From the IMG/VR virus record IMGVR_UViG_2597489870_000004: DNA of 45,587 nt; one strand, 5' to 3'. How positions within the stretch are numbered: position 1 is the first letter of the stretch; the number at the start of each line of letters is the position of its first letter. The notes below the pieces were generated by a model. The model was not told the origin of the DNA and searched no databases. It worked only from the letters and a program-made list of their open reading frames with translations. Shown here piece by piece: positions 17,588 to 21,320 of this stretch. The stretch comes from a virus (taxonomy: Duplodnaviria; Heunggongvirae; Uroviricota; Caudoviricetes). A program made the translations under genes and the position numbers.

Positions 17588-18560
17588 TTACGCCAGTTGT
17601 ACGGACACGAACGCATCAGGATCAGCCAGCAGCATCAGCGGTGCTGACTGAATCATGGTGAACTCACGCGCCGGATCGCCGGTGGTCACCCAGTTTTTCG
17701 GGTAGCGGGCAGAGGCGTTAATACCTTCGCGCTGTGCGTCCGCATCCTGAATGCAGCCATAGGTGCGCAGACCGCGTGCCTGAGTGTTCCCCAGCACCAT
17801 CGTGTTGTCCGGCAGGAAGTTCTTTTTGACGTCGTTTTCCACGTACTGTCCGGAATACACGACGATCGCCGTATCGCCATACATCCCCTTATAGGACACC
17901 GCTTCGCCCAGGTCTTTTACCGCTGTCTCCAGTTCGGAATGAGAGCCGCGACGGGTATCCAGCTTCTCCCTGACGGCTTTGAAGGAACGGAACAGCGCCC
18001 AGCCTTTCGGATCAAACACGATGATATTCACCACGCCGCTGGCGTTCAGCGCGTAGGCTTCGATATCGTCGGTCGGGTCATACGTGGACTTGTCACGCTT
18101 GCTCCACTCCGTGCCGCCGGACTGCGTGATGTTGTTCGCCGCACTGCGGCCCATATCCACCTCAACCGGATCGAAGGCTTCACCGGTCATGGTGTATTTG
18201 CCCTTGAGCACGGCAGAAACTGCCTGCATCTCTTCGACCTGAGCAATGGCCAGCTCTTCGTCACGCATGTTCTGCAGGATGATGCGACGGCGGCGGTAAG
18301 CCGGGTCCGCCAGATTCTGCGGATCTTCATCCGGCAGGCGACGCAGGGTCATCTGCGGATTCACTTCATGCTTGGGTTTGACATATCCCGGCGTAAATTC
18401 AGAGGTGGAGCCGCCACGGGAACGGATAACCTCACCGGAAACAATCGGCGAAACGTACAGCGCCATGTTTACCAGTCCCGGAATTTGTGAGAGATAGACT
18501 TTCTCCGTAGTGAAGGGATAGCTCTCACGGAAAAAGAGACGCAGAAACAGCGGATCAAAC
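17588..18560 (-). pseudogene. E: Major capsid protein E, 3' fragment (codons about 19-341), separated from its start by an IS insertion
   Basis: Frame reads FDPLFLRLFFRESYPFTTEKVYLSQIPGLVNMALYVSPIVSGEV... to ...FVSVQLA, matching lambda E; upstream boundary is the IS inverted repeat at 18561. Confidence 0.9.
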
Positions 18561-18590
18561 GTAAGCGACTCGTCAGAACCGTATTGATAT

Positions 18591-20162
18591 TTACTGAGAG
18601 CTCAGATCAACTTTCCAGGGCAACAGATCGCGTACCCGGTTTGCCGGCCAATCCTGGATATGTTCAATGACGTAACGCAGCCACTTTTCTGGCTCCACAT
18701 TGTTCAGACGGCATGTGCCGATCAGCGAGTACAACACCGCCGCATGTTCACCACCGCTGTCGGAACCCGCGAACATCCAGTTTTTCCGGCCTACGGCCAC
18801 TCCCCGTAAGGCGTTCTCTGCGATGTTGTTGTCGATTTCCACCCAGCCATTACTGCAGTACACGTTCAGTGCATCCCACTGTTTCAGCAGGTATGCGAAC
18901 GCTTTTGCCGTATCTGAGTGACGCGACAGTGTTTTCATCTGTTGCTGTATCCAGTCATACAGTGACTGCATCAGTGGCGCGGCTCTGGCTTTTCTTGCCG
19001 CCAGACGCTGTTCTGCTGAACAGCCCCGGACCTCTGCCTCGATGGCATACAGTTCACCGATACGCTGCAGGGCTTCCGTGGTGATGTAGGTGGGCGCTCT
19101 TGCATGCACATCGTGGATTTTTCTCCGGGCATGAGCCATACACGCGGCTTCCGTTATTCTGCCGGATTCGTATAACGCCCGGTAACCACCGTAAGCATCG
19201 GCCTGAAGCACACCGCTGTAACCGGCCAGGTGATTTTGTGGATGGATACCTTTCCGGTCCGGACTGTACGCGAACCAGACCGCCGGGGGCATCTGTGAAC
19301 CGGCGTTACGGTCATCACGGACGTAGACCCACAGCCGGGCTGTCCGGGTTTTACCGCTGCCCGGCTCCTGGACCGGGACGGGGATATCATCAGCATGGAC
19401 TTTACCGGGCATCAGCACATACTGGCGCAGGACGTCATACAGCGGCTCCAGCAGTTCAGCAACAGCACCTGTCCAGCGCCCCAGTGTGGCACGGCTCAGC
19501 TCCACTCCCTGACGACGGTATATTTCTGACTGGCGGTATAACGGCAGATGGTCTGCATATTTCCCGGTGACAACATGGGCCAGAAGCCCCGCTCCGGCAT
19601 AACTGCGTGCAATGGGTTTTGAAGGTACTGGTGCCTGCACGATATGGTCGCACCGGCAACAGGCCTGTTTCGGACGTTGTGTTTCGATAACCTTAAAGGC
19701 GCTGCTGATAAGCTCCAGTTGCTCTGACACATCACATCCCAGAGAACTGAGTTCACCACCACAGGCAGGACAGCATTCCTCTTCCGGCCGGATAACCCGG
19801 GTTTCACGGGGAAGTGAGGCCGGTAACGGTTTACGGGCTGAAGACTGGCGCAGGGCGGATGGCAGTACCGGGTCATATTGCTCACCCAGCGTTTCCGCCA
19901 TTTCTTCCTGAAGTGCGCTGATTCGCTCCTGTGCTTCCTGTATCTGCCGTTCGGTTTTTGCACGAAGTTTTTCTGAGCTTTTACCGAACTGCATACGTTG
20001 CAGTTTCGCAACCAGCGCCTTCAGCCGGTTGATTTCGGAAGCATAAGCCGCCACCCGCTGTGAGAGCAGGCGGTTGTATTCAGCCATCTGGCGGATGGTG
20101 TCCTGTTGCGTCTGCAACAGTGCCCGCAGGCGGGCGTTCTCATGAGCAAGTGAGGTGTCCAT
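18591..20162 (-). CDS. tnpC: IS66-family transposase TnpC (orf3)
   Basis: 523 aa; N-terminal leucine-zipper-like region, CxxC...CxxC zinc motif, C-terminal DDE-type region as in IS66 transposases. Confidence 0.85.
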
Positions 20163-20181
20163 ATCCTCACTTTACAACGGG

Positions 20182-20529
20182 TTATATGCGGATTCCAGCG
20201 CGTTCCGTTCGTTTCGGGTGCTTCCAGTTGATACCTTCAAGAAGCATGGATAACTGAGCCGGAGTAAGGTGCACCTTGCCGTCACGGGTGACTGGCCAGA
20301 CGAAGCGGCCCCGCTCCAGGCGTTTGGTGAAGAGGCACAGTCCGTCACTGTCAGCCCACAACACTTTTATCTGGTCACCCCGGCGTCCGCGGAAGATGAA
20401 CAGGTGTCCGGAGAACGGGTCATCCTTCAGGACGTTCTGAACTTTTGATGCCAGGCCGTTAAAGCCATTTCGCATATCGGTGATACCTGCAACCAGCCAG
20501 ATACGCGAACCTGCAGGGAGAGATATCAT
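20182..20529 (-). CDS. tnpB: IS66-family Orf2 (TnpB)
   Basis: 115 aa, MISLPAGSRIWLVAGITDMRNGFNGLA... characteristic of IS66 orf2 proteins. Confidence 0.85.
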   Translation of the reverse strand: MISLPAGSRIWLVAGITDMRNGFNGLASKVQNVLKDDPFSGHLFIFRGRRGDQIKVLWADSDGLCLFTKRLERGRFVWPVTRDGKVHLTPAQLSMLLEGINWKHPKRTERAGIRI

Positions 20530-21206
20530 CAGTGGCTGCTCCCTTTTATTTCGCGGATAAGTGTCTGTAATAACGCCGGCGTCAGTTTACCTTTAAGCCT
20601 GAGAGTTCCGGCCGGCAGAACCAGCTCACAACACAGACTGTCGGACGGTGTATTTATCTGCTCTGGTTCCTGTGCGGGGGCCGGGATTTTATTATCCGGC
20701 TCCGGCGTTAACGTCACGGGAAGCAGTGCCGGCATATTTTTTCCGGAAGGCAGCAGGCCACCTTTCCGGTATTGATGGCGCCAGTTGAAGAGCAGGTTAT
20801 CGTTGATTCCGTTTTCCCGGGCGATCTGCGCCACACAGGCTCCGGGCTGCAGTGACTGCTCCACTAAGGCGATTTTAAACTCATAAGGGAAGTTGGGCCG
20901 CCGGGGACGTTTTTTTACCACGGGGGCTTCGGATATAACGGTGCTTTCAGGACGTACGACTGGTACCGTGGAAAATTGTCCGTAAAGGCAGGCATCAAGT
21001 TCCTGCTCCGACATGCCTGCGGGTAAAGGCCACGAAAGGCCAGCTCTCCGAAAGCGCACGAACATACTACAAACTGTTGATTTTGGTACACCCAGGCGAC
21101 GCCCGGCCACAACCCGGGGTAAATGTTCTTCAAAGTGAAGACGTAAAGCTTCAGTGATCCAGGTCCGGTGTTTCATACGATAGTGTCCATTAAAAATGAT
21201 GGACAT
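20529..21206 (-). CDS. tnpA: IS66-family accessory protein (orf1) with HTH region
   Basis: 225-aa ORF, first of three IS ORFs, contains transposase-type HTH segment (NFPYEFKIALVEQSLQPGACVAQIARENGINDNLLFNWRHQYRKG); true start may be downstream. Confidence 0.6.
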   Translation of the reverse strand: MSIIFNGHYRMKHRTWITEALRLHFEEHLPRVVAGRRLGVPKSTVCSMFVRFRRAGLSWPLPAGMSEQELDACLYGQFSTVPVVRPESTVISEAPVVKKRPRRPNFPYEFKIALVEQSLQPGACVAQIARENGINDNLLFNWRHQYRKGGLLPSGKNMPALLPVTLTPEPDNKIPAPAQEPEQINTPSDSLCCELVLPAGTLRLKGKLTPALLQTLIREIKGSSH

Positions 21207-21260
21207 TATTTTTGTAGAGCCGGAGGAAACAGACCAGACGGTTTAAATGAGCCGGTTACG

Positions 21261-21320
21261 ATCAAACTTAAATTTCTGCTCATTTGCCGCCAGCAGCTGG
21301 GCGGTTGTGTACATCGACAT
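21261..21320 (-). pseudogene. E: Major capsid protein E, 5' fragment (first 20 codons MSMYTTAQLLAANEQKFKFD)
   Basis: Matches lambda E N-terminus, then reads directly into the IS inverted repeat. Confidence 0.85.

Follow-up and report, generated by a model that had tools for sequence, protein, structure and literature searches.

An ISCro1 insertion splits the major capsid gene E of a lambdoid prophage in Escherichia coli H10407 at a site used by this element in other strains

The IMG/VR virus record IMGVR_UViG_2597489870_000004 is a 45,587-nucleotide stretch of DNA (the window) that derives from the chromosome of the enterotoxigenic Escherichia coli (ETEC) strain H10407 (NC_017633.1), with which its overlapping 41,259 bases agree without mismatch. 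It covers a lambdoid prophage from the integrase stop codon adjoining potC to a point past the tail-fibre genes. Within this prophage the major capsid gene E, of the phage lambda type, is physically broken by an insertion sequence (IS) of the IS66 family, ISCro1. The octamer GATCAAAC is found twice, both copies abut the insert directly and without mismatch, and the span between them is exactly 2699 bp (Table 1). An 8-bp match at both ends would arise by chance about once in 65,536 cases. The termini of the insert, GTAAGCGACTCGTCAGAACCGT and, on the other strand, GTAACCGGCTCATTTAAACCGT, agree at 16 of 22 positions and form imperfect inverted repeats that start with GTAA. Three open reading frames (ORFs) on the minus strand fill the element, and inspection of the sequence places the tnpA stop codon over the tnpB start codon, with a 1-nt overlap (TGATG). 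The duplication coordinates, the 2699-bp size, the three ORFs and the imperfect repeats had all been given in the original prediction, and each was borne out by our check of the sequence.

Removal of the insert together with one copy of the octamer rejoins the two E fragments exactly and yields a 1026-nt ORF of 341 codons. This restored ORF has the same length as lambda E (NC_001416 6135-7160) and aligns to it without gaps, with 25 nucleotide and 9 amino-acid differences, the protein being identical to lambda gpE (NP_040587.1) at 332 of 341 residues. The alignment agrees with the earlier view that the reading frame is intact on either side and split after codon 20, and it makes the two fragments contiguous. 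The duplicated octamer corresponds to E nt 54-61 (lambda coordinates 6188-6195); E is thus interrupted after codon 20 plus one base, by 2707 bp, and no uninterrupted coding sequence for it is present. In its present state the 5' fragment codes for MSMYTTAQLLAANEQKFKFD plus RNRLI, a 25-residue peptide whose frame runs on into the IS and ends after five more codons. The 3' fragment has been cut off from the start codon, the ribosome-binding site and codons 1-20. Residues 12-341 of lambda gpE match this distal fragment by tblastn, and its 292-aa ATG-started ORF scores 198.9 bits against PF03864 (Phage_cap_E). In RefSeq, positions 17588-18550 appear as a 'major capsid protein' of 320 aa (WP_044519273.1) that starts at CTG and bears no pseudogene flag.

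Assignment of the insert to the IS66 family rests on all three of its proteins. The 523-aa TnpC matches the Pfam domain DDE_Tnp_IS66 (PF03050) with 345.8 bits, also carries the zf-IS66, LZ_Tnp_IS66 and DDE_Tnp_IS66_C domains (PF13005, PF13007 and PF13817), and reaches 477.9 bits against the NCBIfam equivalog model NF033517, whose cut-off is 180. TnpB (115 aa) scores 136 bits against PF05717 (TnpB_IS66) and 128.9 bits against NF033819 (cut-off 50), and TnpA (225 aa) scores 55.2 bits against the helix-turn-helix model PF01527 and 295.8 bits against NF038385 (cut-off 150). The accessory genes tnpA and tnpB stand upstream of tnpC, the order expected of the family. Imperfect terminal repeats beginning 5'-GTAA are typical of IS66 elements, and the ends here begin GTAAGCG and GTAACCG. 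Of the 23 complete copies identified in IMG/VR contigs, 18 have perfect 8-bp duplications on their flanks, as does the present copy.

At the DNA level, numerous copies labelled ISCro1 in RefSeq share 99.9% identity with the insert. Scores above the curated cut-offs of Pfam and NCBIfam, with 99.9-100% identity to a named element, place the IS66-family call made from sequence inspection on firm ground. ISCro1 was first named in Citrobacter rodentium ICC168. It is reported to be strongly expanded in C. rodentium, where more than half of the genome's IS elements lie on other mobile elements (PMC3072379), and its published length of 2699 bp and 8-bp duplication (PMC12115866) both agree with the insert. 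The element is widespread: 3018 of 5426 complete E. coli genomes contain matches, near-full-length in 1493 of them, as do 2455 plasmid records drawn from genera that include Escherichia, Shigella, Salmonella and Klebsiella, while the exact 41-nt pattern of an IS end gave only two metagenome bins in the species-representative genome set. The insert and other ISCro1 copies share length, duplication size, tnpA-tnpB-tnpC layout and GTAA-type ends, with no structural difference; relative to ten other copies, the insert has two private synonymous substitutions, at IS positions 91 and 2464. All three of its proteins share RefSeq WP accessions with identical proteins of copies in other strains. Given that the three ORFs are intact and that identical proteins are encoded at many independent sites, this complete copy of ISCro1 is apparently functional.

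Table 1. Coordinates in the window of the split capsid gene and of the element that splits it
Feature	Coordinates	Strand	Evidence
Distal E fragment (E nt 54-1026 including stop; last 8 nt are a duplication copy)	17588..18560	-	PF03864, tblastn
Target-site duplication copy 1, GATCAAAC	18553..18560		sequence
ISCro1 (IS66 family), complete, 2699 bp	18561..21259	-	100% identity to NC_017633.1 1314175-1316873
Terminal inverted repeat, tnpC-proximal, GTAAGCGACTCGTCAGAACCGT	18561..18582		16/22 vs other end
tnpC, IS66-family DDE transposase, 523 aa	18591..20162	-	PF03050, NF033517
tnpB, IS66 accessory protein, 115 aa	20182..20529	-	PF05717, NF033819
tnpA, IS66 accessory protein with helix-turn-helix domain, 225 aa	20529..21206	-	PF01527, NF038385
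Terminal inverted repeat, tnpA-proximal, reverse complement GTAACCGGCTCATTTAAACCGT	21238..21259		sequence
Target-site duplication copy 2, GATCAAAC	21260..21267		sequence
Proximal E fragment (nt 1-61, codons 1-20 plus one base)	21260..21320	-	sequence, lambda E alignment, tblastn

Our reading of the locus is that a complete ISCro1 inserted into a lambda-type E gene with duplication of its 8-bp target, and that the prophage's own capsid production was lost; we give this a probability of about 93%. In outline, ISCro1 would have transposed into E nt 54-61 of the prophage beside potC in H10407, leaving it unable to make its own capsid shell. In lambda, no shells form without gpE, and tails assemble independently of heads. 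Induction would therefore be predicted to result in cell killing, lysis and the production of tails with no filled heads, as in lambda E-defective mutants, unless capsid protein were supplied by another resident lambdoid prophage or E were repaired by recombination. Since the IS genes run in the same direction as the head genes, late transcription under Q-type antitermination would probably read through the element, so that the downstream tail genes need not be silenced. A scan of positions 17400-21800 found terminator-like sites only at the level expected by chance.

An alternative is that truncated E remains functional through a restart at the RefSeq CTG or at Met50, and that capsids are still built. 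The unflagged 320-aa RefSeq entry and the open frame of the 3' fragment would fit such a restart, but the product would be without the first 20-49 residues of E and the message without its native ribosome-binding site, and the scan of 17400-21800 found no promoter-like site. RefSeq itself flags as incomplete the equivalent fragment in strain ECONIH5, another carrier of ISCro1 in E (described below). HK97-fold capsid proteins moreover need the N-terminal arm for assembly, and we consider a working truncated E highly improbable.

Other observations do weigh against the view that capsid production is lost, which we infer from lambda genetics. Two places in H10407 match the E body, and each junction query matches 14 places in H10407, compared with 13 for the IS alone. 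Given these two E-body places and one junction place beyond the IS count, H10407 probably holds a second lambda-like D-E region, which might complement the defect in trans or serve to repair it. The proposal that the prophage is unable to build capsids therefore stands as far as the lesion in E is concerned, whereas the loss of capsids is predicted from lambda genetics and could be offset by the probable second D-E region.

The remainder of the morphogenesis module is in good order. Lambda Nu1, A, W, B, C, Nu3, D, FI, FII, Z, U and V align end-to-end with the window in single tblastn alignments, as do G, T, H, M, L, K, I, J and Lom over their full lengths. Identities range from 83 to 100% for Nu1 to J, with 44% for Lom, and E is the sole split protein. 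Because every other morphogenesis protein from Nu1 to J is full length, E is the only visible structural lesion, and the description of the rest of the module as intact holds at the level of ORFs. The window also contains int, xis and an exonuclease gene, together with lysis genes annotated by RefSeq, and its RefSeq pseudogenes are limited to two small hypothetical genes; with full-length modules and just these two small pseudogenes, it is fair at the ORF level to call the prophage otherwise complete. The window lacks an exact copy of the lambda cos sequence but has a variant cos region upstream of Nu1. A truncated repressor was suspected at one stage, since the RefSeq gene model, a 'LexA family protein', takes in just the C-terminal 112 aa, but this was ruled out by an intact CI-type ORF of 212 aa (38997-39635, plus strand) that starts at an upstream ATG and has helix-turn-helix and peptidase S24 regions.

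Lambda E amber mutants are E-defective, and the IS-riddled prophages of E. coli O157 and the cryptic prophages of K-12 are examples of IS-inactivated lambdoid prophages. The H10407 prophage resembles these in the loss of the major capsid protein, in its intact tail genes and in IS-driven decay. It differs in that the lesion is one clean insertion and the module is complete apart from it, which would place the prophage at the very first step of decay.

The interruption of E by ISCro1 recurs in other strains. Among 5426 complete E. coli genomes and IMG/VR, both junctions coincide to the nucleotide with those of H10407, and the orientation of the IS agrees, in DLI.6n, whose prophage lies beside bioA-ybhB, and in ABW_A19, where the prophage is Qin-like. 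A further record, NZ_CP007594.1 ('SEC470'), has the same 5,153,435 bp and identical coordinates as H10407; it is probably the H10407 genome deposited twice and should not be taken as an independent occurrence. Recurrence bears directly on the possibility that the junctions are an assembly artefact of a multi-copy repeat. ISCro1 matches 13 places in the H10407 chromosome and such repeats can mislead assemblers, but an artefact is hard to reconcile with a perfect 8-bp duplication, with the exact restoration of E and with the presence of both junctions in independent complete assemblies of other strains, and we regard its likelihood as negligible.

Insertions also occur nearby and in the opposite orientation. 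In ECONIH5, ISCro1 lies 12 bp deeper in E with the duplication GCAGAAAC, and the E alleles of ECONIH5 and ABW_A19 are identical over 380 bp. When a hypothetical opposite-orientation junction was constructed and used as a search query, inverted ISCro1 was identified at the exact GATCAAAC site in TUM12368, YZLc1-3, EC17CM6 and Ec-U3, the last three of which have one prophage allele in common. ABWA45 likewise has an inverted copy at E nt 15-22, 2EC1 has one in the D-E spacer, and an IMG/VR contig adds a further allele with the same insertion site. An apparent orientation bias in the first five cases, all co-directional with the head genes, was gone after this search. Scans for junction patterns in metagenome contigs and species-representative genomes gave no match. 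The uninterrupted site is present in 3196 of the 5426 complete genomes.

Together, these insertions fall in a stretch of 95 bp without the IS (window 18541-18560 and 21260-21342), which holds three further insertions besides the one at GATCAAAC. By position and orientation alone they represent at least five independent events, and the number is probably seven or more. The GATCAAAC site itself is occupied in unrelated strains, with the IS facing either way, and the prophage backbones concerned number at least three. The IS66 family is usually regarded as lacking target specificity. We nevertheless think it likely that the first 73 nt of E and the D-E spacer constitute a genuine hot spot for ISCro1, which would imply a palindromic target preference and a recurrent route to capsid knock-out.

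The competing explanation is that H10407 does not hold a recent event of its own but a single older insertion that spread, by descent or homologous recombination, among lambdoid prophages along with the head module. DLI.6n is the case most favourable to it: site and orientation are identical to those in H10407, and the flanks are indistinguishable for 183 bp of E-side and 255 bp of D-side sequence, despite the location of the prophage at another locus. TUM12368, however, has the same near-flank allele (its first differences from H10407 lie 196 and 234 bp away) and yet carries the IS inverted, so that identical near flanks reflect a common allele and are not proof of a shared event. In ABW_A19 the site and orientation are the same, but the flanks depart from those of H10407 only 19 and 52 bp from the IS. 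The IS copies are about 0.1% apart, as against about 2% for the flanks, and the substitutions at positions 91 and 2464 of the H10407 copy are absent from all ten other copies. One origin through recombination for all the same-site copies is ruled out by the inverted IS at the same 8 bp, and a single origin is further countered by the insertions of ABW_A19 and ECONIH5, which lie 12 bp apart in an identical E allele. On this evidence the spread of one older insertion is an unlikely account of the pattern.

A strict target sequence for ISCro1 could be discarded, with no fixed motif present among 72 distinct tnpC-proximal flanks in IMG/VR. A position weight matrix derived from 138 independent IMG/VR half-sites, with capsid-region sites excluded, indicates the same weak preference at both IS ends, with G favoured three bases and C two bases outside the duplication, and a duplication that has an A/T-rich core in a G...C frame. 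The consensus is palindromic, reads approximately GC-N-[GNWTAWNC]-N-GC and holds about 1.6 bits per half-site. By this matrix the E site ranks 32 among 42,852 positions of the window (top 0.1%). When the sites were divided into a training and a test set, 9 of the 13 complete sites held out fell in the top 10% of scores, and the E site scored above all 13. The E position thus matches the weak palindromic preference unusually well, which would explain the repeated hits in other strains. Sequence preference would then explain the hot spot in part, as an effect that appears real but is probably partial. Tempering this interpretation, the matrix carries only the modest information just given, and 31 window positions score higher than the E site, none of which was seen occupied in a limited sample; sequence preference alone may not account for the strength of the hot spot.

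ISCro1 has been encountered at a described IS hot spot before: in E. coli ST131, a hot spot for integration that lies upstream of afaA holds ISCro1 or another IS (PMC8764528). The two sites are alike in this respect. The afaA site, however, lies within a fimbrial regulatory region where other elements insert as well, whereas the E site was seen with ISCro1 only, in both orientations, and matches the target preference derived from ISCro1 insertion sites. Our literature searches found no account of the H10407 insertion, of recurrent use of the site or of an ISCro1 target preference. Elsewhere in the head genes of other lambdoid prophages, ISCro1 occurs twice in the same orientation at a site in gene D (duplication CAGCCTCC) and in both orientations at a site in the protease/scaffold gene C (CTCTGTGG); the equivalents of these sites in the window are at 21428-21435 and 21836-21843.

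The comparisons among copies also bear on the age of the insertion. Over its 2699 nt the H10407 copy differs from each of the ten other ISCro1 copies by 2-5 nucleotides, two of these differences, at positions 91 and 2464, being common to all ten comparisons, while the phage flanks diverge by about 2% between the same strains. A perfect duplication and so few differences in the IS, set beside this flank divergence, suggest that the insertion is young relative to the divergence of the prophages. The original prediction of a fairly recent insertion is therefore plausible, in light of the perfect duplication and the near-identity of the IS copies. The clean duplication is not, however, the sign of a unique event, because the site is a recurrent ISCro1 target.

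Taken by itself, the insertion is an ordinary, textbook IS knock-out in a public reference genome; recurrent use of the E site by ISCro1 is the only part not found in the literature searches. The locus documents the loss of a capsid gene to a common IS in a lambdoid prophage of H10407, a reference strain for ETEC. Recurrent insertions in both orientations at one 8-bp site provide a natural data set on the poorly characterised target choice of IS66-family elements, and the D-E junction of about 100 bp is a concrete substrate for its study in the laboratory. If the hot spot is true, capsid-gene knock-out by ISCro1 would be a recurrent route to prophage inactivation. There is also a practical aspect, in that the RefSeq entry conceals the E lesion and would mislead prophage-completeness tools and inflate completeness scores. 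Truncated E is likewise unflagged in DLI.6n, TUM12368 and YZLc1-3, ECONIH5 being the case in which RefSeq marks the fragment as incomplete.

Several accessory features were observed along the way. In the H10407 prophage there are three tRNA genes (Arg-tct, Arg-tcg and a third whose anticodon is CAT, Ile according to RefSeq), a hok/sok module, and the DicF small RNA adjoining dicB, these features lying at window positions 30368-30617, 34866-35037 and 41002-41053. In ABW_A19 (CP067307), E is broken a second time, near E nt 238-244, by an integrase-bearing element of about 10.7 kb (approximately 9211-19927) with the flanking repeat TGCTTCGGCT. This element has its own major capsid and head-decoration genes, together with a primase, a single-stranded DNA-binding protein (SSB), an Icd-like gene and a TIR-domain protein, and looks like a phage satellite that is site-specific for lambdoid capsid genes. 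Its junction is present in 16 of the 5426 complete E. coli genomes, including that of IAI39.

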